Counted from the stretch's first letter, positions 40,661 to 59,921 are shown. The stretch is 64,000 bases of DNA from Verrucomicrobiia bacterium (GCA_035577545.1 DATLVI010000024.1:133478-197477); one strand, 5' to 3'. Translations and numbers: made by a program. The notes: generated from the letters alone by a model not told the origin.

Positions 40661-40670
40661 AGGAGACCAC

Positions 40671-40892: not shown

Positions 40893-40921
40893 CTCTGATT
40901 TGTCGCGAGTGGTGAGTTGAC
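40893..40921. repeat. direct repeat copy 2 (TGTCgCGAGTGGtGAGtTGACCCGACGAC)
   Basis: see copy 1. Confidence 0.6.
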
Positions 40922-41949: not shown

Positions 41950-41974
41950 ATTCCCAAAACGTACCAGTACCTGC

Positions 41975-42058
41975 GGCCCACACCGCCGTTCGGTCCTTCG
42001 GTTCGCTCCAAAGTTGAGAGTTTAGCGTTGAACGTTGAGCGTTAGCCGAGTCTGACGA
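41975..42058. repeat. ~85-bp repeat copy A (CCGCCGTTCGGTCCTTCGGTTCG.TCCAAA + heptamer array)
   Basis: ~85% identical to copy B at 42663-42745. Confidence 0.6.
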
Positions 42059-42147
42059 GACGCGACCTTGCTGTACCGCGGTCGCAACCGTTTCCCCCGT
42101 AATTGACTCAGTCACACGTTTCCGGTATAATCTGAATCGGGTCGCCT

Positions 42148-42645
42148 ATGCCAAAGCTACACATACTCTCGCCGAGCTCGCTCGCCGCAACAATTGAGCT
42201 GACGGAAAGTCTTATCACGATCGGTCGGACTCCTGATAACTCCATTTGCATCCAGGACACCAACGTCTCCAGGCGACACGGAATTCTGGTGCGTGACGGG
42301 GACAGTTATCAATTGCACGACTTCAAATCCGCCAATGGCACTTTCGTGAATGGCGAGCAGATCATGGCGGCGAAACTCAAGGATGGCGCGTCCATCCGTT
42401 TCGGCTCGGTAGAGCTTCGCTACGAATCGGGTCTCGCCAAGGCTGCGCCGCTCGGAACCGCACTAGCCGATCAGAAAATGCTCCCCACGCCGCCCAAGGG
42501 CGGCAGCGGCAAGGAGCGTGGTGGCATGTCAAAAAGGATGAAACCCGAATACGCCGCCGGGTCGTTGCAATCCGGTCCCGTTACCTTCCCCCCGGGCTCC
42601 CTCGCCAAACCCATATCTCCGCCGTCTCCCAAGAAGTCCGAGTAA
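42148..42645 (+). CDS. FHA-domain protein
   Basis: ITIGRTPDNSICIQDTNVSRRHGIL...SANGTFVNGEQI FHA core; Pro-rich tail. Confidence 0.75.
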   Translation: MPKLHILSPSSLAATIELTESLITIGRTPDNSICIQDTNVSRRHGILVRDGDSYQLHDFKSANGTFVNGEQIMAAKLKDGASIRFGSVELRYESGLAKAAPLGTALADQKMLPTPPKGGSGKERGGMSKRMKPEYAAGSLQSGPVTFPPGSLAKPISPPSPKKSE

Positions 42646-42662
42646 ACCAGCCTCCTGGGTGG

Positions 42663-42745
42663 CGCGGTCCACCCCGCCGTTCGGTCCTTCGGTTCGTTCC
42701 AAAACTTGAACGTTGTGCGTTGAGCGTTTAACGTTGAGCGTTCAG
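42663..42745. repeat. ~85-bp repeat copy B with 5 heptamer units
   Basis: see copy A. Confidence 0.6.
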
Positions 42746-42885
42746 GCGTTCTTTCCCCCGCCGACATTGCTCCCATCGGTCCTATTCCGCGTCTTTTTCT
42801 CTCCCCCAAAACCGTCCAAATCCCTGTTTTCACCCTTTTTTCGAAAAAAACACCCTCAAAAACCCCAATGAATACGCGCCTTTGG

Positions 42886-42920
42886 AAGAAAAGCTTCCAA
42901 AGCTTCCAAACCTTCCAAAG
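42886..42920. repeat. tandem 9-mer (G/C)CTTCCAAA x3.5
   Basis: GCTTCCAAAGCTTCCAAACCTTCCAAAGCTC. Confidence 0.6.
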
Positions 42921-43010
42921 CTCACTCACGCCTTTTTTCGATTTCCGATAGTCTGCCCCGCGTTGATGAAAAACGCAGTCACACAACGCAGCGAAACGAG
43001 GAGATCGAAT

Positions 43011-43817
43011 ATGAATTGGTTGTCGAAGATCGCGCTTCTGCTCGGACGCCGAAAGTTCGAGGAATTTGCCCAGGCCAACCCCACGCTCCCGGACGACGCC
43101 CTCGCCGTCGCCAATACGCTCGATACCTATCCCGTCCGCGGCGCGGTCGCGCTCGTCGCCGGCTCGCTCGCCCACGCGCTCGACAACCTGCTGCGCGGCA
43201 CCGAGACGGTCAACGCCGCCGCGACGCATGTCCTGCTGATTCTCGCGGGCCTCTGCATCATCTGGGTCCGCCACGCCATCAGCAAACACGACGTCCGTGT
43301 CAACGCCGTCCTCCAGAAAGCCCGCGATCTCTCCGGGATCGCCGTCAAAACACTCGTGCTGATCTTCGCACCCTTCGTGTTCTTCGTGGTGAAATCCCCG
43401 GCTGCCTCCGCCCAAACCAACGCCCCCGCCGACAATGCCTTCACCCAGCTCGTCACCGATATCGGCAGGTCCACGAAATTCAGCAGCGGCATCGGCATCA
43501 ATCTCCACGGGAAATTCGCGCCGCTACTCTCGCAGGAACTCCCTCTCTTCGGCCACTCGGGCACCAACTCCTCCTGGTCCACGGGACCGTCGCACGCCAC
43601 GTTCTTCCTTCCAACCCAAAACCAGGAGGAACTGGGCTGGTCACTGAGCGGCAGTTGGCAGTCACCGCCGCGACTCTTGCGCCTCGCGCTCTTCAACGCC
43701 AGCGACATCGACTGGACCGTCAACTGGGGTCTGCCCGTCGAGGACTACTACCAACTCTTCCGTCACGCCGACTGGAAGGAAAACCGCCTCGGCCTCTCCG
43801 TCACGCGCAAGTTCTGA
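43011..43817 (+). CDS. hypothetical membrane protein
   Basis: 2-3 TM helices; no motif; the track ORF starts at 42882. Confidence 0.35.
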   Translation: MNWLSKIALLLGRRKFEEFAQANPTLPDDALAVANTLDTYPVRGAVALVAGSLAHALDNLLRGTETVNAAATHVLLILAGLCIIWVRHAISKHDVRVNAVLQKARDLSGIAVKTLVLIFAPFVFFVVKSPAASAQTNAPADNAFTQLVTDIGRSTKFSSGIGINLHGKFAPLLSQELPLFGHSGTNSSWSTGPSHATFFLPTQNQEELGWSLSGSWQSPPRLLRLALFNASDIDWTVNWGLPVEDYYQLFRHADWKENRLGLSVTRKF

Positions 43818-43835
43818 GCCGGGAGCCCACCAGGA

Positions 43836-44201
43836 ATGAACGAAATACACGAAATCAATTGGGGCGCGGTCCTGGCCTTCATCGCGATCCTCGAATTTAT
43901 GCGGAGCGTCGTCATCTACATGTTCATCAGCCCGCTCCGTGGCGCGGGCAAGAAAATCGACCACCTGGAGGACCAGCTCAACGGCCTCAATTTCACCAAT
44001 CTGCAAAAGGGCGTCGAGGACCACGAGAAACGGATGCGCGCACTCGAAAGCGACGCGATGCCCATTGACGATTTCCAGCGCTACACCGACGTCGCCGAGC
44101 GCGACCGCCGCCTGATGAACAAGAAACTCGACATCCTTTTGCAACGCACCGCACACCTCCGTGAACCTGAAGATGAAAGGGAACTAGCCGATGAAAGCTG
44201 A
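43836..44201 (+). CDS. hypothetical protein (N-terminal TM plus coiled coil)
   Basis: ORF with one TM; position upstream of the terminase genes. Confidence 0.3.
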   Translation: MNEIHEINWGAVLAFIAILEFMRSVVIYMFISPLRGAGKKIDHLEDQLNGLNFTNLQKGVEDHEKRMRALESDAMPIDDFQRYTDVAERDRRLMNKKLDILLQRTAHLREPEDERELADES

Positions 44202-44463
44202 ACAACTCCGCGACCTCCGCGTCGCGCTGCTCCGTGAACTCTACCGTCTGAACCCGCTCGGCCGCCGCGCCGTCGTGCTCCACATGCTGGTCCAACCAGA
44301 AGTCGAGTGCACCGTCGCCGAGGTCACCGCGCAACTCGCGTTCCTCCGCGGCAAACATTTCCTCTGCGAGGTCAAAGCCGACGACATCTCCCCCGGCCTC
44401 GACCCATTCTGGTTCATCACCACCGAAGGCATGGTTCACTGCGAGGCGAAGCGACTGGTATGA
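44191..44463 (+). CDS. hypothetical protein
   Basis: ORF; ATGA overlap with the next gene. Confidence 0.3.
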   Translation: MKAEQLRDLRVALLRELYRLNPLGRRAVVLHMLVQPEVECTVAEVTAQLAFLRGKHFLCEVKADDISPGLDPFWFITTEGMVHCEAKRLV

Positions 44464-45143
44464 AAAAGCGCCGCAATCAGAGAGTCAGTCGTTGGCCGCT
44501 CCGGAAAAGATTCAGCCGGATTGCGATGTTGCCCGAAGAAATGCGCCTCGAGATCAACCGCAAGATGCGCGATGGCCAGCAAATCAAGATGATTGGTGAA
44601 TGGTTGTTCGAGCAGCGGGCGGATCGCGACCTACCCCACCTACATTTGAAGGCGGGCGATGCTTATTCGTTGAGCTGGCTGCGCACCAGTCCGAAGGAAA
44701 AGAACGCGCGCCGGACTGTCGAAGCCGGCCTGGCCCGCTGGTTCTACACTTCGTACCAGGAATGGCTACGCCGTGAACAGGCGCGCGAGGAGACGGTTCA
44801 ACGGGTCGAAGACTCGGAACAGACCAACAGAGCGGCGGCGGAAAAGAGCCAACCCGATGCTGACGTGGGCGGCAACCTGATTATCCGCTCGATGCTTCTA
44901 GAGGCCATCAACCTGGTCCACAAGGACAGCAAAGATCCGACGGAGCTCTCGCAACTGGCGACTGCGTGGGCGCGCTTGAAACAGACGGCGATTGAACTGG
45001 AAAAGCTCCGGCTGCGCACGCAAGAGGCTGTGGACGCCGGTCTCAAGGCGCTCAAGTCCGAGATAACGAAAGACCCCGAGGCGATCGAACTTTTCAAGAA
45101 ACTTCACGACATCGTGAAACGGTCCGCGAACTCCGACGCATGA
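44460..45143 (+). CDS. putative phage terminase small subunit / DNA-recognition protein
   Basis: position immediately upstream of, and 4-nt overlap with, the large terminase; basic N-terminus; no motif confirmed. Confidence 0.35.
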   Translation: MKKRRNQRVSRWPLRKRFSRIAMLPEEMRLEINRKMRDGQQIKMIGEWLFEQRADRDLPHLHLKAGDAYSLSWLRTSPKEKNARRTVEAGLARWFYTSYQEWLRREQAREETVQRVEDSEQTNRAAAEKSQPDADVGGNLIIRSMLLEAINLVHKDSKDPTELSQLATAWARLKQTAIELEKLRLRTQEAVDAGLKALKSEITKDPEAIELFKKLHDIVKRSANSDA

Positions 45144-47197
45144 ATACGGGCTTCAACATACTCGGACGCTCCATCGACCTCGACCTGGCACCGAAAGTTA
45201 TGACGCCCATGGTGAGTTCCTTCCGCGAGTTCCTCGAGAAACACGGTCGCGTCAAAACTCCTGACGGCAGCTACCAGTGTTACACATTCGAGGGCCGCGA
45301 GGCGTTGGAGTTTGTGGTGGGGGTTATTGATCGCGTTCTCGGTTCAAACGATGGCCAACCCATGAGCGACGCCCGGCTTACTGCCACCGGTTCAGCGCAG
45401 TGGGGGAAAACCATTCTCGAACTCAACCTGCTCGCCTACGCCGCCGGTATCCAGTTCCGCTCCGTCGGCCTCTTCCTGCCCGATGAAGATCTCGTTGAGG
45501 GCATCGTCGATAGCAAATTCCGTCCCGATGTCCTCGACCAGCAGCCGTGGCTCAATTCCCTGATCACGCTCGGCAAAGCCGAAAACGCGTCGGGCAAAAC
45601 GGTCAATCGCAAGGGCTTGTTCACCTGCACCGGTAGCCGGAAAAAGTCGCACGGGATGATCCACGGCATGCAGAAGATCCCCACGACCTTCAGCTTCGAC
45701 ATCGTCATCGAGGACGAGAAGGACGACATCCCGCCGACCATGTCGCGCTACCTCACCGCCCGCATGACCGCCAGCGATCTGCGCTTCCGTTTGAGCATCG
45801 GCACCCAACGCTACGCCGGCGCGGGACAGAACAAGGAATTCGAAGACGGCACGATGCACCTCGGCCATTTCACCTGCGCCGTGTGTGGTCACAAACAAAA
45901 CCCCGAAGAAAACTGGCCGCAAATTTGCCGGTTGGCGATTGATCGCGAGCCGAGGTGCGATGATCCGCAATTGCAGTTGGAGGGGAATTTCAAGCGGAAC
46001 GGCCCGCGCTCACCGAGCGCGGCTACAGCGGAAGGCGTGTTTGAGTTCGAGCCGGACGGGAATTTTTATCTCGCGTGCGTGCAGTGCGGGCACGAACTGG
46101 ATCGGCATAAGCCGGAGTTTGTCGCGCAGCATCCCGAACGGGAGAAGTTGCAGCACTGGTCCGTGCGCATCTCGCAATTGCTCGTTGCTGCCATCGCCTT
46201 GAAACAAATCGTCTCTGATTGGTGCCAGAACGCCGTGCAAGACCCCGACGCGATGAAGACGTTTTATGTCGACCGCCTCGGCCTGCCGCGTTCCAGCAGC
46301 CAGCAACTCGACCAGAAAATCCTCGACCGCGCCCGCTCGCTGGAGCACTTCGACCTGTCACTGTCCCCACGCCCCAACACCACGCGTTTCGCAGGTTTAG
46401 ACACCGGCGACCGCTGCTGGCTCACTGTCCGCGAGGTCGAGTCCCCAACCATCAAACGCATCACCTGGCTGGAACAACTCAGCGCCGAACGCGTTCGCGC
46501 CCGTGTGCCGCAGGTTTTCGAGCTGCTGGGAGTCAGCGCACTCTTTGTCGACGCCGGCCCGCTGCGCGATCTGGCCCGCGATCTCTGTTTCTTGTTGAAC
46601 GGTCTCACGAGTTTCCGTCCGTCGCCGCTTCCCGATCCCGAACGTGCCGTCATCCATTTTCCCGGTGGCCTCACGTGGGACGGCGCGAACCAGCGCTGGC
46701 GCGGCCTGCGTTGCGCCGCCGTCGAGTTCACGCTCAAGGAAGGGAAGGGGGTCGTCCACAAACTCGGCATCACGCAGGACGGCCTCTTTTATCCCGTCAT
46801 CGCCTGCAACCGCGACGAGACCATCGAGCGCGTTGTCAACGAACTGCTTACCGCCGCCGAAAACGTCATCGAGGTCATCGACGGCAAACTGCGCACCGCG
46901 CCGTCGATCCGCCTCCCGCAACGCGGCGTCGCGACGCCGAAGATCATCGACGCGTTCGACGCGCATATCATTTCCGGCAGCCGCCGCGAACGCGACGAAC
47001 GCGGCCACGCCGAGCACTTCGTCGACGGTTGCGAAAACCATTTGCTACTCAGCGACGCCTACAGCGCGCTCGCGGAATCCGTGTGTGCTCACCCCATCGC
47101 GCTCCCTCCTTTCGGCGCGATGAATCCCACCACCTCCCTCACACACGGAAACCGCGGCCGCTGGGGCGCCACCACTTTGGCCAGGAGGACCTTTTGA
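45140..47197 (+). CDS. phage terminase large subunit (GpA-like)
   Basis: 685 aa; CxxC...CxxC zinc-ribbon (CAVCGH, CVQCGH) between the ATPase and nuclease halves, as recalled for GpA-family terminases; position before the portal. Confidence 0.65.
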   Translation: MNTGFNILGRSIDLDLAPKVMTPMVSSFREFLEKHGRVKTPDGSYQCYTFEGREALEFVVGVIDRVLGSNDGQPMSDARLTATGSAQWGKTILELNLLAYAAGIQFRSVGLFLPDEDLVEGIVDSKFRPDVLDQQPWLNSLITLGKAENASGKTVNRKGLFTCTGSRKKSHGMIHGMQKIPTTFSFDIVIEDEKDDIPPTMSRYLTARMTASDLRFRLSIGTQRYAGAGQNKEFEDGTMHLGHFTCAVCGHKQNPEENWPQICRLAIDREPRCDDPQLQLEGNFKRNGPRSPSAATAEGVFEFEPDGNFYLACVQCGHELDRHKPEFVAQHPEREKLQHWSVRISQLLVAAIALKQIVSDWCQNAVQDPDAMKTFYVDRLGLPRSSSQQLDQKILDRARSLEHFDLSLSPRPNTTRFAGLDTGDRCWLTVREVESPTIKRITWLEQLSAERVRARVPQVFELLGVSALFVDAGPLRDLARDLCFLLNGLTSFRPSPLPDPERAVIHFPGGLTWDGANQRWRGLRCAAVEFTLKEGKGVVHKLGITQDGLFYPVIACNRDETIERVVNELLTAAENVIEVIDGKLRTAPSIRLPQRGVATPKIIDAFDAHIISGSRRERDERGHAEHFVDGCENHLLLSDAYSALAESVCAHPIALPPFGAMNPTTSLTHGNRGRWGATTLARRTF

Positions 47198-47206
47198 ACA
47201 AAGACA

Positions 47207-47244
47207 ACGCTCAACGTTCAACACTGAACGCTCAACTTTCAACG
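47207..47244. repeat. tandem heptamer array TGARCGT x5 (inverted orientation)
   Basis: AACGCTCAACGTTCAACACTGAACGCTCAACTTTCAACG. Confidence 0.6.
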
Positions 47245-47307
47245 AATCGCGAAAAAACCAACAGCGCGACGGTCATAGACCGCCGCTACAAAAAACGGAG
47301 AAATAAA

Positions 47308-47703
47308 ATGAAGAAACACCTATGCGCGATCCTGCTCACTGCAACCGTCCTGGCGACGTACGTCTACGCGCAAGGCGGCTACCCGCTCGGCTCGGACGTC
47401 GCATCAACGATCACCACGAATAAATTGAATATCGTCGGCGCCAGTTCGACGCTGGTGGCGACCGACAACGCCGACCGTGTGTTTTGCAAGATCGTCCAGC
47501 GCGGCACCAACGCCATCGACGTCGGTTACAGCCTCACCGTGACCAATGGCCAGCAGGATTACCTCGTCGGCACGGTCGGCAGCACGTGGGACACGAAACG
47601 CCCCGCGCTCTACAAGGGAGCCATCTCCGCGATTCTCGATAGCTCGACGGCGACCCTCACCTCCGCCGTCACCGTCATCGAAGGCACGCGCCAAAGTTTC
47701 TAA
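47308..47703 (+). CDS. small secreted protein (signal peptide), possible moron
   Basis: MKKHLCAILLTATVLATYVYA signal peptide; inserted between the terminase and portal genes. Confidence 0.4.
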   Translation: MKKHLCAILLTATVLATYVYAQGGYPLGSDVASTITTNKLNIVGASSTLVATDNADRVFCKIVQRGTNAIDVGYSLTVTNGQQDYLVGTVGSTWDTKRPALYKGAISAILDSSTATLTSAVTVIEGTRQSF

Positions 47704-47730
47704 CTGGTTGGAGCGCTTACGAGAAACCAA

Positions 47731-49257
47731 ATGGCCAATCGCCTCACAAAAACATGGCAGGCGCTGAAGGGCGCGGGTGCGGAAATGTTCCAATTCGGCG
47801 AGAGCAATCTCGTCGACCCGCCTTCGCCTTTGGCTTCGGCGGGCAAGTCCACCACCGGAGATAGTACGCCCGTTCCTCCGGCGCCCGGCACCATCGTCAA
47901 AGCGCAGGTGGCAGAGCGCTGGATGAATCAGGTCACCCGCGGCCTCACGCCCGAAGCGGTGGACGACTATCTCACCACGGCGATCAGCGGCGACACGCTC
48001 AATCAGTTCGCGCTCTTCGAGGAGATGGAAGAGAAATGGCCCGAGCTGCGTCTAGCGCTCTACAAACACAAGCTCAAGGCCGCCCGCCGCAATCCGCGCA
48101 TCGTCCCGCCCGACCATCCGCAGAATCCCGCGCTGGCAAAAGAGAAAGCCGATTTCGCGAACTACGTCTTCGCCGCGATGCGCAACTGGCATCGCACGGC
48201 CTTCAATCTCCTCGACGCGGTCGGCAAAGGCGTCAGCGGCGCGGAGATCGATTGGCAAATGGGGGAGATAGCGGGTCGCCGCGCCGCCGTCGTCATCGCC
48301 GAAATGCCATGGGTGAATTATCGCCACTGGAGTTGGTGGTGGGACAAGCCCGAGTTGCAGTTGTTCCCCGATCTGCGCAACCGTGCCCTGCACATCGACG
48401 TGCCCGACCGCAAATTCGTCATCTTCCACCATCTCTCGAAAAGCGGCCATCCTGCGCGCGCCGCGATGTTGCGTCCGCTCGCCTGGTATTTCCTCATCTA
48501 CCTCTACACGATGAAGGACTGGAGCACGCTCGCGGAGACCTTCGGCGTCGATATCGCCCACGCGTTTTGCAACAAGGACGCCACGCAGGAACAGCGTAAT
48601 GCGATCCTCCTGCATCTCTCCCGCCTCGCCGCCCGCGCCGGCGTGTTCGATGAGGGGACGGTCGTCAATCTCCAGCGCGCCGCCAGCAGTAGTTCGTTCC
48701 CGCAGGAAGCGCTCGTGAAATACTGCTCTGAGAAAGCGCTTGAATGCCTTCTCGGCGCGACACTCGGCACGCAAGCCGGCACCCACGGCGCGCGTTCGTT
48801 GGGATTAGTCCAACAAGATGAAACAGAAGAGTTGGTGGATTGGACGTCTCTCCTCTTCGCGGGAACGATGACCGCCACCGCGTTGCGTTGGTTGATGGAC
48901 TTCAACTTCGCCGACCCCACCGACAATCCCGTGATGGAATTACCCGGTGCGAGCCGCCGCGACATCGCCGCCCTCGCCAATGTCGTCAACACCCTGGTCA
49001 ACCTCGGCCTGCGCGTCCCCGAATCCTGGGCCCACGCCCAGTTCGACATTCCACAGCCCGGCGAAACCACCGAGCGCCTGCTGACCCCGAGTCAAAATAA
49101 CGGTCCGGACGCGCCGGAAAATCCGTTCAATGGTTCTGCGCACACCAGCCTCGACGTCAAACACTCGGGTCTACGAGCGAAAGTGGGGTTCGCAGGTAAT
49201 GCCCAAGCCACAACCACAGCACCACCATCCACGTCAACAGGATGGTCTGAACGATGA
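47731..49257 (+). CDS. phage portal protein
   Basis: 508 aa; position after the large terminase; acidic/aromatic-rich core; no motif confirmed. Confidence 0.55.
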   Translation: MANRLTKTWQALKGAGAEMFQFGESNLVDPPSPLASAGKSTTGDSTPVPPAPGTIVKAQVAERWMNQVTRGLTPEAVDDYLTTAISGDTLNQFALFEEMEEKWPELRLALYKHKLKAARRNPRIVPPDHPQNPALAKEKADFANYVFAAMRNWHRTAFNLLDAVGKGVSGAEIDWQMGEIAGRRAAVVIAEMPWVNYRHWSWWWDKPELQLFPDLRNRALHIDVPDRKFVIFHHLSKSGHPARAAMLRPLAWYFLIYLYTMKDWSTLAETFGVDIAHAFCNKDATQEQRNAILLHLSRLAARAGVFDEGTVVNLQRAASSSSFPQEALVKYCSEKALECLLGATLGTQAGTHGARSLGLVQQDETEELVDWTSLLFAGTMTATALRWLMDFNFADPTDNPVMELPGASRRDIAALANVVNTLVNLGLRVPESWAHAQFDIPQPGETTERLLTPSQNNGPDAPENPFNGSAHTSLDVKHSGLRAKVGFAGNAQATTTAPPSTSTGWSER

Positions 49258-49615: not shown

Positions 49616-49707
49616 GACGCCTGATTATCGCTCTGAATTCCGCGTCCCTCAAGTCCAAACCAGCCTGGCCACTACAGCCGTCCCAACCATGTTCTTAGGA
49701 GACCAAC

Positions 49708-50835
49708 ATGTCTGAATCGACAACGCAACTAATCCCCAACGTTATCGCCCTGACCGGCCTTTCCTCAGCCATCAAACCAGAGGCGCAAGCCGACCTTTGG
49801 ATCGTTTACCTGCCGAAAGGCGACCGCGCGGTTGACCAGAGCGCCGAGGATGGTACGCCGACGAAATTGCGCGTCAATCCGTCTGCGCTTTCGGCGAAGC
49901 GCATGGAAGCCGCGCGTCGGCTTGCCGCCGCGAAGCCAAACGCGAACCAGCCCTATACCGATTATAACCATGACGACAAGGAAGCCAGCGGTCGGCCGTT
50001 GAAGTTCGCGTGGCATGACGACCTCGGCGTGATCGGTCTCACGCGGCGCACGCTCCAGGCCATCGAACGCACCACGGGCGATCCGCCGGAGTTCCAGGCC
50101 TTTTCGCCGCACGTGCCTCTCGACCCCGAAACGGGCGAGGCTGTCGGTATCTATATGAACTGCGGCGGTTTCGTGAACCGCCCGCTCTTCGGCGATGCGA
50201 CTTCGCTTTCCGCCGCCGCGCATCTTCCGCAGGAATTGGTCGCCGCTGACCCGAACGAAGTCGAACTCATTAGCACCGACGTTGTAGCAGCGTCCGTCCC
50301 GGACGCTTCCACTCCCGCAACCGGGGAACGGGCGGGACGCCCGTTCTACGAACTCATTGCCAAACTCTGCGCGCACTTTCAACTCGACGCGTCCACCGTC
50401 ACCGAGCCCGAGTTGATTGCTGCCTTCGAGGAATCTGTTTCGTCCCAACCCGCTGAGCTAACCGCAAAGGCCGCGCTTCACAAACCGTCCGACGAAGAAA
50501 TCGGAATGGAGCTTGTCGGCTTTGCGGTTGGCTGCGGGATTCTCGCGCCAGCCGAGAGTGCCGAATGGGAACGCCGCCTCGCCAAAGATCGCGCGGGTTG
50601 GACGAAAGAATTGTTAGCGAAAGCGCCGAGCGTGTTGCTCGGCCGGGTCATTCAGGATCAATCCGCCGGTGAGGCTGCCGGCGGGACGAAACCGAAAGCG
50701 AAGTGGGAACAGCGCGTTGAGGAGCTGTGCGCGAAGGACCCACTCATCGCCCCGATCGCCGCCAAAGATCCTGTGCGCGCCAAATCGATTGCGCTCGAAC
50801 GAATCGCCAGGGAGGAGCCCGCGCTCCTCAAGTAG
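49708..50835 (+). CDS. putative prohead protease/scaffolding protein
   Basis: 375 aa, Ala/Glu-rich C-terminal half; position between the portal and the decoration/capsid genes. Confidence 0.4.
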   Translation: MSESTTQLIPNVIALTGLSSAIKPEAQADLWIVYLPKGDRAVDQSAEDGTPTKLRVNPSALSAKRMEAARRLAAAKPNANQPYTDYNHDDKEASGRPLKFAWHDDLGVIGLTRRTLQAIERTTGDPPEFQAFSPHVPLDPETGEAVGIYMNCGGFVNRPLFGDATSLSAAAHLPQELVAADPNEVELISTDVVAASVPDASTPATGERAGRPFYELIAKLCAHFQLDASTVTEPELIAAFEESVSSQPAELTAKAALHKPSDEEIGMELVGFAVGCGILAPAESAEWERRLAKDRAGWTKELLAKAPSVLLGRVIQDQSAGEAAGGTKPKAKWEQRVEELCAKDPLIAPIAAKDPVRAKSIALERIAREEPALLK

Positions 50836-50870
50836 GCAAAACCAAAAACCAAAAAAGAGGAGACACACAA

Positions 50871-51236: not shown

Positions 51237-51258
51237 CGCAACCCAAAGGAAAACGCAT

Positions 51259-52278
51259 ATGGCATCCGAACCGCAACTCCTGACACTCAATGCGCAGCTC
51301 ACGACGTTCGTCGCGGGCGTGCAACCACCCGATTTGCTCGGGCGCATCATCGCGCCGACGTCCCCGGCGCAGTTGATCTCCGATGTGAAATTCAACTGGT
51401 GGAAATTTGACCCCGCCGAGTATCTGCGCAAGCAGGACACGAAGGTCAACCGCCGCGGCACGATTCCCGTGACGGATTTCAGTTTCACCACCGACAGCGA
51501 TGTCCTCGCCGATCATGGCCAGCAGATCGTCAACCCGAATGACATCAGCCTGCTTAGCGAGGGCCAGCCGCCGCAAATCCTGCAAGCGCCGGTGAATGTC
51601 CGCATGGCAAAACTCAAGGCGTTGACCGAGACGTTTTGGTTCTCGCATGAGTTCGAGGCGCGTGATCTCGTCTTCACCGCCGCCAATTACGCAGCGGCCA
51701 ACACGCGCGTCGCCGCCACCACTGACATGCTCGACAATGCGGACAACGAGCCGATCAAAATTATTCAGACCCTGATCGACACGCCATTGATCCCGCCGAA
51801 CGCCCTCGTCATGGGCCTTGCCGTTTGGCGTCCGCTGCAACGTCATCCACAAATGGTCAGCGCGATCAAGGCCGTCCTCGGCAGCCGCGCCGCCGTCAGC
51901 GGCCAGGTCAACCAGGATGAAGTCGCGGCGTTCTTTGGGTTGAAACAGGTGCTCGTGGGCAAGCAGCGCACGAATAACGCGAACCCCGGCCAGACGGCCA
52001 GCTACAGCCGCATCTGGGGCAAGCACCTCGCCGCGATCCGCATCGAGGACGCGCCGCAGTCCACCGTCTCGCCGTACCCCGGCACCGCGCTCACGGCGTA
52101 CGGAAACATCATGAACGCCGGCCCGGTCTTCGTCGCCTCCCGCACGATCCAGCCCGGCGAGGAAAACGGCGGCCTCTACGGCGCCGTCGCCGACATCATC
52201 GGCCACACGCGCAAGGTCCTCATGGTCAATCAGGATTCTTGTTACCTGTTGCAGAACTGCGTGACCAACGACGTGTAA
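51259..52278 (+). CDS. phage major capsid protein (lambda gpE-like size and position)
   Basis: 339 aa; followed by a strong stem-loop; order D-like then E-like. Confidence 0.6.
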   Translation: MASEPQLLTLNAQLTTFVAGVQPPDLLGRIIAPTSPAQLISDVKFNWWKFDPAEYLRKQDTKVNRRGTIPVTDFSFTTDSDVLADHGQQIVNPNDISLLSEGQPPQILQAPVNVRMAKLKALTETFWFSHEFEARDLVFTAANYAAANTRVAATTDMLDNADNEPIKIIQTLIDTPLIPPNALVMGLAVWRPLQRHPQMVSAIKAVLGSRAAVSGQVNQDEVAAFFGLKQVLVGKQRTNNANPGQTASYSRIWGKHLAAIRIEDAPQSTVSPYPGTALTAYGNIMNAGPVFVASRTIQPGEENGGLYGAVADIIGHTRKVLMVNQDSCYLLQNCVTNDV

Positions 52279-52294
52279 ACCACCAAACCCGATT

Positions 52295-52318
52295 CCCTCT
52301 CCCCTTCGGGGGAGAGGG
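52295..52318 (+). terminator. stem-loop CCCTCTCCCC-TTCG-GGGGAGAGGG after the capsid gene
   Basis: perfect 10-bp stem; near-identical copy at 54847-54870. Confidence 0.5.
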
Positions 52319-52340
52319 TCAGGGTGAGAGGGAATAAAAC

Positions 52341-52817
52341 ATGACCACCATCAGCGCCTTCTTGATCGCCGCCGACGTGACGGACAATTTCAGTCCCGCG
52401 CAACTCATCGAATTGCTCGACGACCCCGTGAATCCCACCGGCGCGTTGAACACCACCCTCCGCGACAAAATCATCGCCCGCGTCAATGGCGAAGCCAGCA
52501 GCCTCACCTCGGGCAAACTCATCTTTCCACTGCAAGTCGACGACACCGACGCCGACAACATCAAGGCCACCCTCGCCGGCTTCGCGCTGGACATGTTCGA
52601 GTACTACGCGATGAAGGACAAACCGCACATCCTGCAAGCCTTCACCGGTGTGCAAGATGGCTACAACCGCGCCATCCGGTGGCTCGAAGCTGTCCGCGAT
52701 GGCAAAGCCACCATCGGCACCAGCAAAACCATCCCCGGCGCCGAAGCCCGCAACGCCGCCGTCGAGACCAGCCCCCACAAGGGCACGTTCGAACGCAGAC
52801 GAATGAGAGGTTGGTAG
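52341..52817 (+). CDS. putative head-tail connector/completion protein
   Basis: position after the capsid gene; 158 aa. Confidence 0.35.
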   Translation: MTTISAFLIAADVTDNFSPAQLIELLDDPVNPTGALNTTLRDKIIARVNGEASSLTSGKLIFPLQVDDTDADNIKATLAGFALDMFEYYAMKDKPHILQAFTGVQDGYNRAIRWLEAVRDGKATIGTSKTIPGAEARNAAVETSPHKGTFERRRMRGW

Positions 52818-52938
52818 CGCATGAGGCAAAATACAAAAACACCGTTCGTCTTTTCTGTCACCCTGAGCGAAAGCGAAGGGTCTCGCAAAACAAGCCTGCA
52901 CTTTCGCAATCACTGCGGAGTTAGGAAGTAGCCCTCAA

Positions 52939-54011: not shown

Positions 54012-54050
54012 ACGAAACCATTATCAAAAACCAAAACGGAGGAATGAGAA

Positions 54051-54836
54051 ATGAGTAACTTGGCCATCCGCAATCGGCTGACCGTCGGCAATGTCTGGCA
54101 GGGCGGCGCGGTCGCGCTTTTCGACCGCGATTATGCCGGCGTCCTGCTGGACCTCGGCAACGTCACCGATTCGAGCTTTAACCAGGAATTGGAGGCGACC
54201 GACTTCCGCACCGCGCGCGCCACGGGCACGCTCGTCACCGAAGCCCGTCCCATCAAACGCCTCGAACTGCCCATCACCATCAAATGCAACGCGCCCGACC
54301 CGAAAGCACTCGACCTCGTGCTCTTCGGCAACGGCCAGGCCGCTTTCAGTCAGTCCTCGGCGACCGCCTCCACCCAAAACATCACCGTCGCCGCGCTCGA
54401 CATGTGGCACAAGATCGCCGGCTTCGAAATCGCCAACGTCGTTGTAAAGAAAGCCAGCACCACCGCTGTGCTCGGTACCGATTACGATCTCGACACCGAA
54501 CTCGGTGCTGTCAAGCCGCTCACTGGCGGCATGTTTTCCGTCACCGACACCATGGCCCTGACTTTCGACCTGACCGCGATCACGAAGGTCGAGAACCGGC
54601 CGCAGACCCACATCGGCTTCGTTTACGGCGAATTCTACCTCTACATGGTCCTCCCGCCGAACGAAGGCCGCGCCGCCGAGCAAGTCTGGCTCCGCCACAT
54701 GGCCAAATCCCGTCTGGAACCGACTGGCAACTTCGACTTCAGTCCCGACAAACCGGCCGAACAATCATTCAAAATCACGCCCATACCGAGCGGCGACGCC
54801 ACGTACCCCTTCGGTTACCTGCGCCAAATCAAATAA
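54051..54836 (+). CDS. putative major tail (tube) protein
   Basis: 261 aa; SD GGAGGAA; followed by a strong stem-loop; immediately upstream of the chaperone/frameshift/TMP block. Confidence 0.5.
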   Translation: MSNLAIRNRLTVGNVWQGGAVALFDRDYAGVLLDLGNVTDSSFNQELEATDFRTARATGTLVTEARPIKRLELPITIKCNAPDPKALDLVLFGNGQAAFSQSSATASTQNITVAALDMWHKIAGFEIANVVVKKASTTAVLGTDYDLDTELGAVKPLTGGMFSVTDTMALTFDLTAITKVENRPQTHIGFVYGEFYLYMVLPPNEGRAAEQVWLRHMAKSRLEPTGNFDFSPDKPAEQSFKITPIPSGDATYPFGYLRQIK

Positions 54837-54846
54837 CGCATCCTGT

Positions 54847-54870
54847 CCCTCTCCCCTGCGGGGGAGAGGG
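54847..54870 (+). terminator. stem-loop CCCTCTCCCC-TGCG-GGGGAGAGGG after the tail gene
   Basis: copy of the 52295 hairpin; the ~45 bp repeat includes the downstream AGGGTGAGRGG. Confidence 0.5.
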
Positions 54871-54903
54871 TTAGGGTGAGGGGAACAAAGCCAATCCATA
54901 TAT

Positions 54904-55278
54904 ATGACCGACACCATCAAACCGACAATCCGCGAGCCGCTCGAAGTCATTTATGACGACGAACGCCGCGAGACCATCATCATCAAGCGCCTCTCCAACA
55001 CCGACATGATCAAGTGGGCCGACACCGGCCTCGACAAGGCCTTTCTTGTTTTCCGCTCCGTGGAATTCAGTAGCGCGGGCGTTTCGCCCGCGAATCAATT
55101 GTGGTTCGACACCCTCTCTCAAGACAGCGCCTTCGCCGTTGTCGAGAAGGCGCTCACGCTGAACCATTCCCCAATTCAAAAAAAAATAATGGAGGCCGTC
55201 CTGGCAAACCTGCGGTCGTGGTTGTCAGCGATGCCCTCGACTTCCTCCGCGCCCGCGGTCACGACACCGACAAACTGA
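54904..55278 (+). CDS. tail assembly chaperone (gpG-like, short form)
   Basis: 124 aa ORF ending just after an A9 slippery run; the overlapping -1 frame ORF 55101..55502 continues to just before the TMP gene. Confidence 0.55.
   Translation: MTDTIKPTIREPLEVIYDDERRETIIIKRLSNTDMIKWADTGLDKAFLVFRSVEFSSAGVSPANQLWFDTLSQDSAFAVVEKALTLNHSPIQKKIMEAVLANLRSWLSAMPSTSSAPAVTTPTN
55178..55186 (+). other. A9 slippery sequence; programmed -1 ribosomal frameshift site producing a G-T-like fusion (54904..55502)
   Basis: C-AAA-AAA-AAA-T; frame 1 reads QKKIM, -1 frame reads SKKNNGG and stays open 133 aa. Confidence 0.6.
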
Positions 55279-55520
55279 CCGACTATGAAATCGAAGAAAC
55301 TTTCACAGCCGCTTTCAAAAACTGGCAGCACGGTCTGGTCGAAGCCGCCTTTTACACGGGCCTGCCATGGATAACCAAACCGCGTGACTGGAAAAAATAC
55401 TGCGACGACCTCCACCGGGCAATCGAAGGAAATTCACAACGCGCTGTCGCCGAGAATCTGCTCGCCACCTTTCTCTCGCAGGGCGTTCCCATCGCGAATT
55501 GACGGCAAAGGATAATTAAT

Positions 55521-56591
55521 ATGGCTGCCAACAACATCGCTGAAATCATCCTGAAAGTGACGACCGAAGGTCAGGGCAATGCCCAGCTTTTGGCGGCCCA
55601 ATTGACGCAACTCGATCAGGCGACCAACAAGGTGATGACCACCACGCTGGCCGCCACCACCGCGCAGAAATCGTTCAACGCAGAAATCGGCAAGCCGCCG
55701 CCCGCGCCAGGCCTGGCCGTCGCGCAATTGCAACAGCCCAACTCGCAATTGGAAAGAATGCTGCAAAACTGGGGCAACCTGCAAAAACAGGTGGATGGTT
55801 TCACCACGCACACGCTCCGCGATTTCACCGCCACGTCCGCCCATGCATTGACTGAGTGGATCGAGGGCTCAGCAAACGCCAAGCAGGCCTTCGCCGGCTT
55901 CGTCACGTCCGTCCTCGAAGGCATCATTCAGATAATGCTCCAGCAGACGATTGCCCACGCACTCGGTCTGACGCAGGCACAGGTCTCCGCCCAAACGCAG
56001 ACCGTCGCGAATACGGAAATCGCCGCCAGCGCCGCCCCCGCTGCTGCGCTCACGGGCGCCGCCACGTTCGGGGCGAACTCCGTTGGCGTGGCGCTCGTCA
56101 TTGCCGCCGTGCTGGGCGGTGTCGGTGCATTGCTGGCCCTGACGCGCAAGGCTGAGGGCGGTCCTGTGTTTGGTGCGGGCAGCGAGACGAGCGATTCAAT
56201 TCCGGCGTGGTTGTCACACAACGAATACGTGCAACCCGCTTCCGCGCACAACTACTACGGCACCGACGTCATGGAAGCCATGCGCACACGTTCCATCCCG
56301 CGCGAAGCGATCCGCTCTTCAATGGAACACCGCACGTTTGCCTGTGGCGGCCCCGTCCTCCCCACCCGCGGTTTTGCCGAGGGTGGTATCGCCGTGCGCA
56401 TGGCCGGCGGCGGCATCGTTCCGAATGTCAGCGTCGGCGGCGCAACCGTATTGCTCGCCTTCGGCCCGGCCGAGATCGACCGCCTCATGGCCACCACCGA
56501 AATGCAAAAGCACCTGACCGATCATCTCGACCGCAACGCCCACCGCGTCGCCCGCAACATCAAACGCACGGGAGGCCATCGGCAGGAATGA
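55521..56591 (+). CDS. tail tape measure protein (short, 356 aa)
   Basis: Ala/Gln-rich helical N-terminal half, Gly-rich hydrophobic segment (TM-like); position after the frameshift chaperone. Confidence 0.55.
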   Translation: MAANNIAEIILKVTTEGQGNAQLLAAQLTQLDQATNKVMTTTLAATTAQKSFNAEIGKPPPAPGLAVAQLQQPNSQLERMLQNWGNLQKQVDGFTTHTLRDFTATSAHALTEWIEGSANAKQAFAGFVTSVLEGIIQIMLQQTIAHALGLTQAQVSAQTQTVANTEIAASAAPAAALTGAATFGANSVGVALVIAAVLGGVGALLALTRKAEGGPVFGAGSETSDSIPAWLSHNEYVQPASAHNYYGTDVMEAMRTRSIPREAIRSSMEHRTFACGGPVLPTRGFAEGGIAVRMAGGGIVPNVSVGGATVLLAFGPAEIDRLMATTEMQKHLTDHLDRNAHRVARNIKRTGGHRQE

Positions 56592-57844
56592 TCCCGAACC
56601 TCACCATATTGCCATTTAGGGCGAACTGGTATTCACGAATCACGTTGAAGTCCACTTTCGCCACAAATATCAAACGTGAATCCATTCCCGGCAGCATTAC
56701 GCGCGACAGCGCGCGCGACTACGGTCAGCGCTCCATCAAGTTCAGCATCCTTCCGTACGAGGATCAGCGTCGGAATTGGGACGCATTCCGCGAAGTAAAT
56801 CCGCCGGGCACAATCCTCGGCATCCCGCTCTGGTGTGAGGAAGGTATCTACCTGACCGCCGACTCCCCCATCGGCGCAACGACTCTATCGGTCTCCGCAG
56901 TGAACTTCATCGACTGGCGGAACGAAGCCGTGTTGTGGAAGTTCGACGACTCGGCTTGCGAAGGCATCCAAATCGCGAGTATTAGCGCTACCACAATCAC
57001 GCTTTCATCCGCCCTTCAATCCGCTTTCAAAGCCGGCGACCAGGTTTTGCCCATGATGCGCGGATACCAGATCGATGAGTACGCCGAGGAGCTTCAATCC
57101 TGCGAGACTTCGGTAATCGAACTTACTTTCGAGGAAGATCTCGCGCACGCGGCTGCCCCATCGATGCCGGGCACTCTCAATGCCGCGACCTACCTCGGCC
57201 TGCCCGTGCTGCCGCTCATCGCCGAATGGGGCGAAGCTCCCAAGGTGAATATTGGTCAGGGCACACACATCGTCTCGTCAGGGTTCAATCGGCAGGCGCT
57301 CGCCACCTTGCGGCAGTTCATTCGCCAGCGCATCTCGCATCGCATCGGTTGTAACGGACGCCAGGATCGCGCAACCCTCTGGCAGTTCTTCCACGACCGT
57401 TGTGGTCGCTGGCAACGATTCTGGCTGCCGGGTTTCAAGAACGAACTGCTGCTTTCCGCGGACGTGGGAGCGAGCGATACCACGTTGCAACTCAAAAACT
57501 TCTCCTCCTTCACTTCTCGTTTCAATTATGGCGGCCAGCTACGACGCGCGATCTTTATTACCAACGGGGATCGATGGTGGATCCGACAGGTGATCAATCT
57601 TTCCGGAGGCGCCAACCGCGTCAGCATTGATTCGGCCGTGGGCTCTTCGCTCTCCGCTTCTTCCACCCTCGTTGGTCTGCTCCCCCTTGTGCAATTCGCA
57701 ACCGATGACATCGAGATCGAATGCCAGTCTCCGCTGGTGTCCACCGCAACCCTCACATTCACCGAGCTCGAGCGTGAATACACGGATGTCATCACGGCCG
57801 GCATCGCAAGCGGCACAGTCGAGGGGATGGAGTTGACGTCATGA
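56588..57844 (+). CDS. distal tail protein (RcGTA g12 / DUF2460-like position)
   Basis: ATGA overlap with the TMP gene; 418 aa; the track ORF 56207.. has a spurious N-terminal extension. Confidence 0.45.
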   Translation: MIPNLTILPFRANWYSRITLKSTFATNIKRESIPGSITRDSARDYGQRSIKFSILPYEDQRRNWDAFREVNPPGTILGIPLWCEEGIYLTADSPIGATTLSVSAVNFIDWRNEAVLWKFDDSACEGIQIASISATTITLSSALQSAFKAGDQVLPMMRGYQIDEYAEELQSCETSVIELTFEEDLAHAAAPSMPGTLNAATYLGLPVLPLIAEWGEAPKVNIGQGTHIVSSGFNRQALATLRQFIRQRISHRIGCNGRQDRATLWQFFHDRCGRWQRFWLPGFKNELLLSADVGASDTTLQLKNFSSFTSRFNYGGQLRRAIFITNGDRWWIRQVINLSGGANRVSIDSAVGSSLSASSTLVGLLPLVQFATDDIEIECQSPLVSTATLTFTELEREYTDVITAGIASGTVEGMELTS

Positions 57845-59328
57845 GGGCCGTCCCCTCAGCTTGGAGCGCCCTGGAGACCGCGCGCGAGCGACGGGTCGCG
57901 TTGCTGTTCCACATCTTCGCGCGGCGCGATGGCCGCGTCTCCCTGCCGAATGGCTGGGGATCGTGGACCTACTCGGTCGGATTTCAAAGCAGCGTCAACT
58001 TCACCGACCTCGCGAACTACGCGAGTGATGGCATCCAGTCGCGCACCTACATTCCCGCGGCGATTGAATTCGACGCGAGCCAGGTCTTCCGCAAGGAAAG
58101 CACCGACCTTGATCCGCACAATCTCACGCTCACGGTCGATCCGCAGTTGGATCCGTTTGCCAATTACGTTGGTCGCCGGTGGCCACTCACCTTCGGCATC
58201 GTGATCTACAAGGTCCATCGCAACGGCAACGCCGTCGTCGCAGTGGACGATGGCCACGGCAACCAGGTGCCGGTCGTGGACGTGGCGTTCATCGGCTATC
58301 TCGACAGCGATGACACCTTCGACGCCAACAGCGCGGGCCTGGAGCAGACGATCGACGGCGGCAAGCTCAAGCTCGAAACAAAGTGGGACCACATCACGAA
58401 GAAGTTCATCCGCCCGGTGCCGCGTCCCGTTTTCAGCATCGATTGTCCCAAGGCGCTCTTCTCGACCGACACCGCCGCCGTTGCCTGCAATGCCGACAAG
58501 CCGAACGTCCGCATCGACGGTTTCGTGTTGCAGAACAACGGCGTGGTCATCAGCGCTACCGAATGGGCCGTACAACCCGATGGCTGGTTTGCCCAGGGGC
58601 TCGTCGAATTTACCGGGACAGATCCGGTCAGCGGACTGGACTTCAGTTTCTCGCTCGGCGTCATCGCCAGCGCCAGGCGCACCTCCCTCGGCGTGGATTA
58701 CGGCGACCTGACGTTGGAGATGTTCCCGCCGTTGCCGGTGACGGGGCTCATCGTCACGGCGTATGGTGGTTGCGACCGCGCCCGTTCAACTTGCGTTACC
58801 AAGCACATTCCCGCCGGTACCGTTCCGCCGGCGCCCGGCACGCCGACACCCGGCCACATCGACGTGGCGCTGCAGTTGTTCAATACACCGCCAACCAATG
58901 CCGGCACCGCGCGCGTGATCATCACACCAACGCAGTTGACCGTTCTCTACGGGCACACGAATTCCGCCCAGATCGGCAACTTCGCCGTCAACGGCGCGGA
59001 CTGGACCACCTATTCCTGGATCGCAAAAGGCTCCGGCTCGATCATCACCGATCCGCCATTCGACCTGGTCGGCGGCGCCGGCATCCCGGACGCCGCGGGC
59101 TACATATTCTCGCTTGCAAACAATGGCGCGGGCGCACCTTCGATCGCGCAGCAACCCACCGCCGCGAATGGTTTCACGTTGATCGTCAAAATAAGTGGCC
59201 AGGCAGCCTACGATTTCCGCGTGAGCTGGACCGCCGGCGATGGCCAGCCCGTCAACTTCGGCAACCTCGAAAACTTCGGCGGCACGGACATCCCCATCGA
59301 GCACCCGACATTGGAGACGACGCAATAA
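57841..59328 (+). CDS. tail hub/baseplate protein (RcGTA g13 / DUF2163-like position)
   Basis: 495 aa; overlaps the previous gene; followed by an NlpC/P60 gene as in g12-g13-g14 modules. Confidence 0.45.
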   Translation: MRAVPSAWSALETARERRVALLFHIFARRDGRVSLPNGWGSWTYSVGFQSSVNFTDLANYASDGIQSRTYIPAAIEFDASQVFRKESTDLDPHNLTLTVDPQLDPFANYVGRRWPLTFGIVIYKVHRNGNAVVAVDDGHGNQVPVVDVAFIGYLDSDDTFDANSAGLEQTIDGGKLKLETKWDHITKKFIRPVPRPVFSIDCPKALFSTDTAAVACNADKPNVRIDGFVLQNNGVVISATEWAVQPDGWFAQGLVEFTGTDPVSGLDFSFSLGVIASARRTSLGVDYGDLTLEMFPPLPVTGLIVTAYGGCDRARSTCVTKHIPAGTVPPAPGTPTPGHIDVALQLFNTPPTNAGTARVIITPTQLTVLYGHTNSAQIGNFAVNGADWTTYSWIAKGSGSIITDPPFDLVGGAGIPDAAGYIFSLANNGAGAPSIAQQPTAANGFTLIVKISGQAAYDFRVSWTAGDGQPVNFGNLENFGGTDIPIEHPTLETTQ

Positions 59329-59921
59329 TGCCACCGCGCCGACCATACTTCTATGGCTCGAATCGCGCGCGCTCACTGCTTGCACAGTTGGCAAAATGGC
59401 AGGGGACGCGCTGGCGGCACGCGGGTGCGAAGCCAAATGAGATGCGGTGTGGCGTCAGCGGCGATTGCCTGTTCTGGGTCCACGTCTTCAAGGCCATCGA
59501 TGCTTTACCGGCAAAGCTAACGATCCCCGACTATCGCCTGCAGGAAGCGCGCGCCGATGAAATGAAAACGCTACGTCAGTGCATCATGGCCACCGGCCGC
59601 GCACAGCTTGTCTGGGAGCGCGACAGTATCGCGAACTATCGAGGAAAGGCCGACGATGAACTCCACCGGCTCGGCTTGCCGTGGCTGATTGTCGGCGATG
59701 TACTGATTTACAAGAATGGGACCAGCGGTGCGCATTGCGGCCTGGTGGCGAACGTTGCGCCGATCCAGTTCGTGCACTTGACTGGCAATGGCCTCCTCGA
59801 GGAGCCACTGCACCAGAAGCACTATCTACAGTCGTTGACATACATTTACCGGCTGCTGGAGCCCGAGTTGAGCGTTGAACGTTCCGCGTTGAATGTTGGA
59901 AGTTTAGGAGTTTCACAATGA
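59328..59921 (+). CDS. tail-associated NlpC/P60 cell-wall peptidase (RcGTA g14 / lambda gpK C-terminal domain-like)
   Basis: catalytic Cys in CGVSGDCLFWVHVF and His in SGAHCGLVAN; TAATG overlap with the upstream gene; the track ORF 58383.. N-terminal extension is spurious. Confidence 0.65.
   Translation: MPPRRPYFYGSNRARSLLAQLAKWQGTRWRHAGAKPNEMRCGVSGDCLFWVHVFKAIDALPAKLTIPDYRLQEARADEMKTLRQCIMATGRAQLVWERDSIANYRGKADDELHRLGLPWLIVGDVLIYKNGTSGAHCGLVANVAPIQFVHLTGNGLLEEPLHQKHYLQSLTYIYRLLEPELSVERSALNVGSLGVSQ
59866..59905. repeat. tandem heptamer array TGARCGT x5
   Basis: AGTTGAGCGTTGAACGTTCCGCGTTGAATGTTGGAAGT, inside the 3' end of the NlpC/P60 gene, just upstream of the 972-aa gene. Confidence 0.6.

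Follow-up and report, generated by a model that had tools for sequence, protein, structure and literature searches.

A 64,000-nucleotide stretch of DNA from a Verrucomicrobiia bacterium (GCA_035577545.1 DATLVI010000024.1:133478-197477; the whole of this stretch is referred to here as the window) contains four short tandem arrays of a 7-nucleotide (nt) unit, GTTGARC, all of them within a cluster of phage-like genes. The four arrays probably represent a family of heptanucleotide simple-sequence repeats, (GTTGARC)n, which resembles long simple-sequence repeats (LSSR) and short tandemly repeated repetitive sequences (STRR) and is largely neutral. It is unlikely that they constitute a dedicated or conserved control system for the cluster, because 7-base repeats of this class are common and because close relatives of the cluster mostly lack the arrays. 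The original prediction, made from the window alone, had offered two readings of the arrays: iteron-like binding sites for a regulator that coordinates the cluster, or a small repeat family. The second reading is supported and the first is not. GTTGARC arrays are widespread in viral contigs and in genomes of Verrucomicrobiota and other members of the Planctomycetes-Verrucomicrobia-Chlamydiae (PVC) group.

Four arrays of one heptamer at gene boundaries

Arrays of four to six imperfect GTTGARC units occur exactly four times in the window (units are written in the direction in which GTTGARC reads forward):

Array 1, 42013-42043, plus strand: GTTGAGA GTTTAGC GTTGAAC GTTGAGC GTT
Array 2, 42705-42742, plus strand: CTTGAAC GTTGTGC GTTGAGC GTTTAAC GTTGAGC GTT
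Array 3, 47205-47244, minus strand: GTTGAAA GTTGAGC GTTCAGT GTTGAAC GTTGAGC GTTG
Array 4, 59867-59908, plus strand: GTTGAGC GTTGAAC GTTCCGC GTTGAAT GTTGGAA GTTTAGG

A two-unit pattern allowing up to two mismatches matched 15 times, against 2.1 matches expected; none of 100 shuffled sequences reached 15, and 14 of the 15 matches fall within the four arrays. We also used a detector that required at least three consecutive units, each agreeing with GTTKARC at 5 or more of 7 positions and with a mean of at least 6. It returned four arrays, compared with 0.02 per shuffled window, at 42013-42040 (+; four units plus GTT), 42705-42746 (+; six units), 47209-47243 (−; five units), and 59867-59908 (+; six units). 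Tandem Repeats Finder (TRF) reported arrays 2 and 3 only, with 72 to 76% matches. GTT is the most constant part of the unit. Thus, all four arrays that had been predicted are present, with two amendments: array 2 begins near 42705 rather than at 42698, and the unit is better written GTTGARC than TGARCGT.

The DNA available for reading totaled 70.8 kb, comprising the window (positions 90948-154947 of the 161.7-kb contig k141_1038883, ENA ERZ27256708) and the 6.8 kb past its end. The detector found no array in window positions 1-42000 or in those 6.8 kb, so the earlier claim of a motif restricted to this locus is correct as far as the window goes. All four arrays lie inside the ∼24-kb cluster, and the remaining ∼47 kb of host DNA contains none.

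The two strands of the unit differ in coding potential. In the forward orientation each GTTGARC unit contains TGA, and, given the 7-nt period, 21 nt of array suffice to place a stop codon in each of the three frames. Read as its reverse complement, GYTCAAC, the unit is free of stop codons in every frame. Relative to transcription, three of the arrays in the window are sense and one is antisense.

The claim that the arrays sit at gene boundaries holds for arrays 1 to 3, which are in spacers. Array 1 is between an SMR/EamA-like gene (stop at 41949) and a gene encoding an FHA-domain protein; array 2 is 3′ of the FHA stop codon and runs into pyrimidine-rich DNA; the start of array 3 is 8 nt past the stop codon of the large terminase gene (47195-47197). 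Array 4 departs from the claim in that it is not purely intergenic: it occupies the 3′ end of the open reading frame (ORF) at 59328-59921, within the last 18 codons. This ORF ends in a stop codon that shares an ATGA with the start codon of the tail gene at 59918-62836, and the degenerate 3′ end of array 4 contributes the AGGAG ribosome-binding site of the tail gene. The third unit reads GTTCCGC, a mutated form without the TGA that would have interrupted this ORF in frame. The ORF had been called an NlpC/P60 gene; the one match found for its protein was a weak endopeptidase match (E = 0.008).

Close relatives of the cluster mostly lack the arrays

Relatives of the cluster were retrieved by means of the terminase protein, 3 from IMG/VR and 23 from metagenomes, all with matching gene order (single loci are given L numbers). 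Identities of the module proteins ranged from ∼40% (small-terminase-like protein) to 97% (major head protein) and were mostly at least 60%. The 3′ junction of the terminase gene is covered by 19 relatives, of which four (L329, L330, L331, and L335) carry an antisense array at the matching site. Array 3 is absent from the other 15, including L324 (95% identical over the covered C-terminal portion of the terminase), L328 (86%), and L337 (82%). Where present, the array varies: it has five units in the window and six in L330, in what is a small sample, and in L329 it is interrupted by a nested small GC-rich hairpin. Because array 3 starts identically past the stop codon in the window, L329, and L330 (caaagac AACGCTCAAC) and shares a GTTCAG variant unit among them, these three copies are related by common descent.

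Arrays 1 and 2 belong to a cassette around the FHA gene:

41973-42012, plus strand: 40-nt segment, left copy (GCGGCCCACACCGCCGTTCGGTCCTTCGGTTCGCTCCAAA), directly 5′ of array 1
42103-42131, plus strand: FHA promoter, sigma-70 type (TTGACT, 17 nt, TATAAT; 11 of 12 positions)
42148-42645, plus strand: FHA-domain gene, 165 amino acids (Pfam FHA, E = 3.8e-19)
42664-42703, plus strand: 40-nt segment, right copy, directly 5′ of array 2

The two 40-nt segments are 93% identical, so that the FHA gene is bracketed by a direct repeat of ∼75 nt consisting of segment plus array on both sides. L330 retains the FHA gene (90% amino acid identity) and has a promoter at the matching position. Its nucleotide homology with the window runs from the −35 element to ∼15 nt past the FHA stop codon; arrays 1 and 2 and the 40-nt segment are absent from L330, and the surrounding DNA is unrelated. 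No copy of the 40-nt segment was found in any other locus compared, and we accordingly rejected it as part of a wider element, as it is confined to the window among these loci.

The array 4 junction is covered by a single relative, L325. There, the site is filled by a different 7-nt-periodic sequence, (WWWCCGA)n followed by its inverted counterpart, which is likewise read through to an ATGA stop-start overlap.

At matching places, the spacers of the relatives hold GC-rich hairpins, A/C-rich leaders, and a second heptamer family, TTTCGGA/TTTTGGA/TTTCGAA, for which shuffled sequences gave 0.03 arrays per 64 kb. The second family occurs at other junctions, as follows:

L324, 2647-2687
L325, 6518-6538
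L330, 14154-14181
L331, 8316-8349
L337, 10981-11090
L342, 67-102

The junctions thus gather small repeats of several kinds and are not sites of one conserved signal. The 40-nt segment of the window is TTCGG rich and may be a degenerate member of the TTTCGGA-type family.

GTTGARC arrays are widespread, and so are other tandem heptamers

A three-unit pattern matched 27 stretches in IMG/VR, where several contigs carry two to eight arrays, and at least 120 stretches in species-representative genomes. Verrucomicrobiota and other PVC phyla, which make up a few percent of the genome catalogue, account for 47 of the 120 genome matches listed, and several PVC genomes were matched two or three times among them. 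At the PVC loci among the matches listed, the 95 genes that flank or contain arrays are housekeeping genes, with products such as SAICAR synthetase, PEPCK, TGT, MreB, MiaA, DAHP synthase, IspD, and ABC transporters; no phage family was among the 25 most frequent families at these loci. An inverted partner lies within 150 nt of 18 of the 64 PVC arrays (28%).

Orientation was counted over the viral and genome loci retrieved plus the window. Of these arrays, 143 were intergenic and 62 lay within ORFs. The intergenic arrays showed no preference (48 antisense and 39 sense between codirectional genes, 30 between divergent genes, and 26 between convergent genes). Within ORFs, by contrast, 56 were antisense and 6 were sense, the excess that the stop-codon asymmetry of the unit predicts.

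The arrays also lack a fixed architecture. GAGC and GAAC units are mixed at every array position, and length and unit order vary freely. The flanks have a weak pyrimidine bias, with the 3′ flank in many PVC loci beginning GTT(T/C)(T/C)C. Given the unfixed unit order and these weakly pyrimidine-rich flanks, the arrays do not represent a defined larger element of ∼35 nt.

Nor is the GTTGARC heptamer special globally, a possibility that scrambled controls ruled out. Three scrambled heptamers with the composition of the real unit matched 10, 83, and at least 80 stretches in viral contigs, compared with 27 for the real unit; with an equivalent detector, extra dispersed sites per 100 kb numbered 7.1, 4.8, and 1.6 for the controls versus 5.8 for the real unit. 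As the scrambled controls are comparably frequent and comparably multisite, tandem heptamers of arbitrary sequence, often at several sites in one genome, are a general feature. A full-text literature search with 14-base two-unit array strings retrieved no relevant paper. GTTGARC is a previously undescribed unit that is strongly represented in Verrucomicrobiota/PVC genomes and in viral contigs.

Relation to known heptamer repeats

Heptanucleotides form the most abundant class of LSSR in most prokaryotic genomes (Mrazek and co-workers 2007, as summarized in PMC4679880), and slippage is the origin proposed for heptanucleotide LSSR and STRR in the same summary. The arrays resemble LSSR and the STRR of heterocystous cyanobacteria in having tandem 7-nt units, with one unit at many mostly noncoding loci. 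A closer parallel comes from the TAACTGA repeats of marine Beggiatoaceae, some Cyanobacteria, and Bacteroidetes, which occur as two to six tandem copies at many intergenic sites (MacGregor 2015, PMC4679880). Like GTTGARC arrays, TAACTGA repeats are dispersed sets of one 7-nt unit with stop codons in the forward direction, an open reverse direction, and slight overlap of gene ends; some copies overlap a ribosome-binding site, as array 4 does; and their distribution is phylogenetically patchy with no transfer mechanism known, which applies here as well. They differ in unit sequence and host phyla. Moreover, the sets in Beggiatoa are mostly forward and directly upstream of start codons, a placement that suggested translational control (PMC4679880), whereas GTTGARC arrays prefer neither an orientation nor a position.

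The window arrays therefore share with LSSR, STRR, and TAACTGA repeats the tandem 7-nt unit, the several loci, the mostly noncoding placement with stop asymmetry, and the variation in unit number. They are unlike STRR in number and regularity: the 70.8 kb read yielded four arrays, each of them short and made of imperfect units. STRR arrays have a high copy number per genome. Heptamers of these three kinds have been known for decades, and there is no agreed mechanism for their spread or function.

Proposed history of the arrays

If the arrays are members of such a family, the repeats would colonize tolerant noncoding spacers both in Verrucomicrobiota/PVC chromosomes and in their phage-like elements. 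Whole blocks of ∼35 to 75 nt would be copied between spacers by recombination or gene conversion. Copying within the genome is suggested by the match between arrays 1 and 3 at 31 of 34 positions, which is in the top 1 to 2% of matches to unrelated family members, together with the 75-nt block that arrays 1 and 2 share. Slippage would then resize arrays in whole 7-nt units, and point mutations would erode them. Placement at boundaries could result from selection filtering the survivors and would not need a function: the stops in all frames of the forward unit confine surviving copies to gene boundaries, and a packed head-tail cluster would tolerate arrays solely in junction spacers or at the extreme 3′ ends of genes. 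The arrays themselves would be neutral, and effects on expression, such as the Shine-Dalgarno sequence supplied by array 4 or the all-frame stops, would be incidental.

Several observations weigh against this history. Clustering of all four arrays in 24 of 70.8 kb has a rough probability of (24/70.8)^4, or ∼0.013, and is not expected of a repeat spread uniformly through the host. The host flanks of the relatives (∼50 kb) contained no arrays, and abundance in the host lineage is not established. The site and orientation of array 3 are kept across ∼15 to 23% divergence of the terminase protein, which could mean selection. Lastly, the recurrence of one unit at several sites is more than slippage by itself can account for, and we infer the copying step rather than having observed it.

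Even so, the locus provides a clean comparative series, with presence and absence of arrays, a one-unit difference, and a nested repeat, that is useful for studying how heptamer repeats are gained, resized, and lost. For annotation, the message is that the arrays should not be taken as regulatory code for the phage-like genes.

Alternative explanations

We give little credence to the idea that the GTTGARC and TTTCGGA-type arrays are together functional junction elements, either protein platforms or recombination linkers, of a lineage of verrucomicrobial phage-like or gene transfer agent (GTA)-like clusters. If true, it would explain both the clustering of the four arrays and the retention of array 3 over 15 to 23% divergence. 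Protein platforms would imply a lineage-wide protein with affinity for tandem heptamers in single-stranded DNA or RNA; linkers would drive module exchange and the acquisition of accessory genes, the FHA gene being one example.

The linker idea taken for the GTTGARC arrays by themselves, in which microhomology at module boundaries promotes module exchange between phages or with the host (FHA gene capture or swaps of head or tail-fiber modules, for instance) and the arrays persist through the spread of mosaics, is also doubtful. Arrays 1 and 2 are exactly where homology with L330 breaks on either side of the FHA cassette. Similarity changes across the terminase junction as well, with 81 to 85% for the terminase versus 94% for the portal protein in L329 and L330 and 95% versus 88% in L324. 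Arrays 2 and 3 form an inverted pair of 37 nt that is 86% complementary, and array 4 precedes a tail/host-specificity gene. However, mosaic breaks at junctions are normal in phages without such repeats, relatives free of arrays keep the same gene order, and no recombinant with a crossover inside an array was found. Moreover, any effect on module exchange could just as well result from the repeats as explain why they are there.

That a DNA-binding protein acts on the tandem heptamers to coordinate transcription of the cluster, in the manner of iterons, operators, or stoperators, we regard as very improbable. The case for such a regulator begins with four arrays of one unit that all fall at operon junctions of a single cluster, with no array in the host flanks read. 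In addition, array 1 lies ∼60 nt upstream of the −35 element of the near-perfect FHA promoter, an unrelated viral contig (L011/L015) has (GTTGAAC)4 arrays immediately next to sequences that resemble promoters, and protein binding to heptamer repeats of Nostoc has been speculated upon (bioRxiv 10.1101/2022.06.06.494920). Yet array 1 is the sole array near a credible promoter: a scan of the region gave 7 promoter sites against 5.1 expected, the only strong one being that of the FHA gene, and that promoter and its gene are conserved in L330 without arrays 1 and 2. Array 3 is found in 4 of 19 relatives, and L325 has a different sequence at the array 4 site. Orientation is mixed in the window and unbiased overall, identical arrays stand beside housekeeping genes in other genomes, and the 7-bp period is off the helical repeat of DNA. 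In the wider lineage, then, the motif is generic and lies at random intergenic positions, contrary to what the regulator reading of the original prediction entailed.

No candidate cognate regulator was found. The adjacent FHA protein had been suggested, but nothing supports its binding to the arrays: FHA, which a match to the related YscD cytoplasmic-domain model overlaps, is the sole domain recognized in it, and a low-complexity tail follows. Two further candidates were rejected. In place of the verrucomicrobial LexA box (consensus TGTTC-N4-GAACA), array 3 has GTTC-N6-GAAC, and by inspection, −35 and −10 elements of the extracytoplasmic function (ECF) sigma type inside the arrays would be spaced by 13 or 20 nt, not 16 to 17 nt.

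As with iterons and mycobacteriophage stoperators, a short motif recurs here at junctions between genes in the genome of a mobile element. Iterons are 17 to 22 bp long, are spaced at the helical repeat, and lie beside a rep gene and an AT-rich unwinding region. The arrays have a 7-bp unit and FHA, terminase, portal, and tail genes for neighbors, and no AT-rich region adjoins any of the four sites. Stoperators are single 13- to 14-bp sites, conserved across related phages and cooriented with transcription, with a cognate repressor. The arrays lack such conservation at matching junctions among relatives, and three are sense and one antisense.

A function at the RNA level is likewise hard to credit. 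The forward strand could form a G-U-rich hairpin with a U/C-rich tail that terminates transcription weakly or insulates a gene, such as the FHA gene, or the antisense strand could provide a C-rich, unstructured, Rho-loading-like site or a site for an RNA-binding protein, as has been proposed for TAACTGA repeats (PMC4679880). A terminator scan scored array 2 (plus strand) and array 3 (minus strand) as weak, G-T-containing stems of 11 to 12 pairs with T-rich tails. Further points for an RNA element are the pyrimidine-rich 3′ flank seen in many PVC loci, the sense orientation of arrays 1 and 2 downstream of genes, and the ribosome-binding site within array 4, which recalls TAACTGA repeats (PMC4679880). 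Against these, RNA folding of both strands at each array was not significantly stabler than shuffles (z from −2.0 to +1.6), and the scan gave 30 terminator-like sites in the region versus 24 expected. A strand-specific role also predicts an orientation bias with respect to genes, and none was seen; nor are the arrays conserved among relatives.

The least credible alternative is a mobile element of the repetitive extragenic palindromic (REP/REPIN) or miniature inverted-repeat transposable element (MITE) kind with a dedicated transposase: presence and absence differ among related genomes, copies occur in both orientations, and the 18 of 64 PVC arrays with a nearby inverted partner recall REPIN doublets, but a single array is tandem rather than palindromic and has no significant hairpin, neither terminal inverted repeats nor target-site duplications were found, nor flanks conserved beyond the weak pyrimidine bias, the 40-nt segment is specific to the window, array length and unit order are free, and no transposase partner was identified, the sole transposase-like sequence being a C-terminal remnant (41222-41530). 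The REP unit is an imperfect palindrome mobilized by a RAYT transposase. The likeness is in short intergenic repeats that occur as singletons and inverted doublets; the differences are the tandem heptamer without a significant fold and the lack of conserved element ends.

The phage-like cluster and its surroundings

The genes around the arrays make up a head-tail module:

44307-45143: small terminase-like gene (Mu gp27-like)
45140-47197: large terminase gene (stop codon 47195-47197)
47731-49257: Mu-type portal gene
51259-52278: major head protein gene
52341-52817: Mu gp36-like gene
55521-56591: tape-measure-like gene (weak Pfam match, E = 9e-4)
57841-59328: gene with faint similarity to a GTA/phage baseplate hub
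59918-62836: tail protein gene (Phage-tail_3 domain and a weak match to the GTA "megatron")

The cluster (42800-66000; L351/L354) contains solely head, packaging, and tail genes, and no integrase, replication, or lysis genes were seen in the 70.8 kb read. Its tail proteins have weak matches to GTA baseplate models. A host-side gene at 39279-39947 has a homologue upstream of the cluster in L332 and L337 too. The cluster may represent a vertically inherited element of GTA-like or defective type; that it is an active prophage is not established. The left 40 kb of the window is ordinary chromosome (RsmB, Der, and histidine kinases), and one ORF of the window is 71% identical to a Pedosphaera metagenome-assembled genome.

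Other small repeats occur in the cluster. A GC-rich hairpin repeat, TCCCTCTCCCC-TTCG-GGGGAGAGGG followed by TCAGGGTGAGRGG, is present in two copies that are 92% identical, at 52294-52331, just 3′ of the major head gene (stop at 52278), and at 54846-54883, just 3′ of the gene at 54051-54836. A similar element is downstream of the terminase gene in L342. The repeat may be a terminator, an RNA-stabilizing hairpin, or another small dispersed repeat. Two more short period-7 arrays were noted in the window: AAAACCA ×2.6 at 50838-50855, just 3′ of the gene at 49708-50835, and TTCCGTC ×3.4 at 40158-40181. The A/C-rich unit AAAACCA recurs in L337, and a similar AACCAAA is found at the corresponding junction of L324. 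Repeats have also entered terminase ORFs of relatives. That of L337 (10900-11150) has two in-frame copies of a segment with a translated heptamer array of the TTTCGGA type (…ENRNSKFET… and …ENRNSKSET…), and that of L322 (4780-5100) has three in-frame copies of the hairpin-type repeat SPPRRGTDPHSNSMH; the window terminase has no insert at either position.

The DNA upstream of the FHA gene is degraded. An AT-rich block at 40577-40668 consists of ACTAAATTAGTA-type repeats, some direct and some inverted, and includes both a promoter-like site and a 60-amino-acid ORF; the region around it (40425-40925) is bounded by direct repeats of ∼25 nt (∼40425-40448 and 40900-40925), and the transposase remnant at 41222-41530 lies 3′ of it. 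In the same degraded region, 1.2 kb upstream, a 21-nt stretch of FHA coding sequence (CTTTCGTGAATGGCGAGCAGA, 42341-42361) recurs at 41121-41141 with 20 of 21 matches in another reading frame, where ∼0.06 such matches would be expected by chance on a rough estimate. By this resemblance, 41121-41141 may be a remnant of another FHA copy.

A tRNA search of the window found none, and Rfam at gathering thresholds gave no match at the arrays. Its two matches in the window are riboswitches elsewhere: a fluoride riboswitch at 21115-21185 (+) and a c-di-AMP riboswitch at 18355-18503 (−), upstream of the gene at 16306-18354. A diverged paralogue of that gene lies in tandem with it at 14204-16216, and repeats between the two are offset by 2120 nt.

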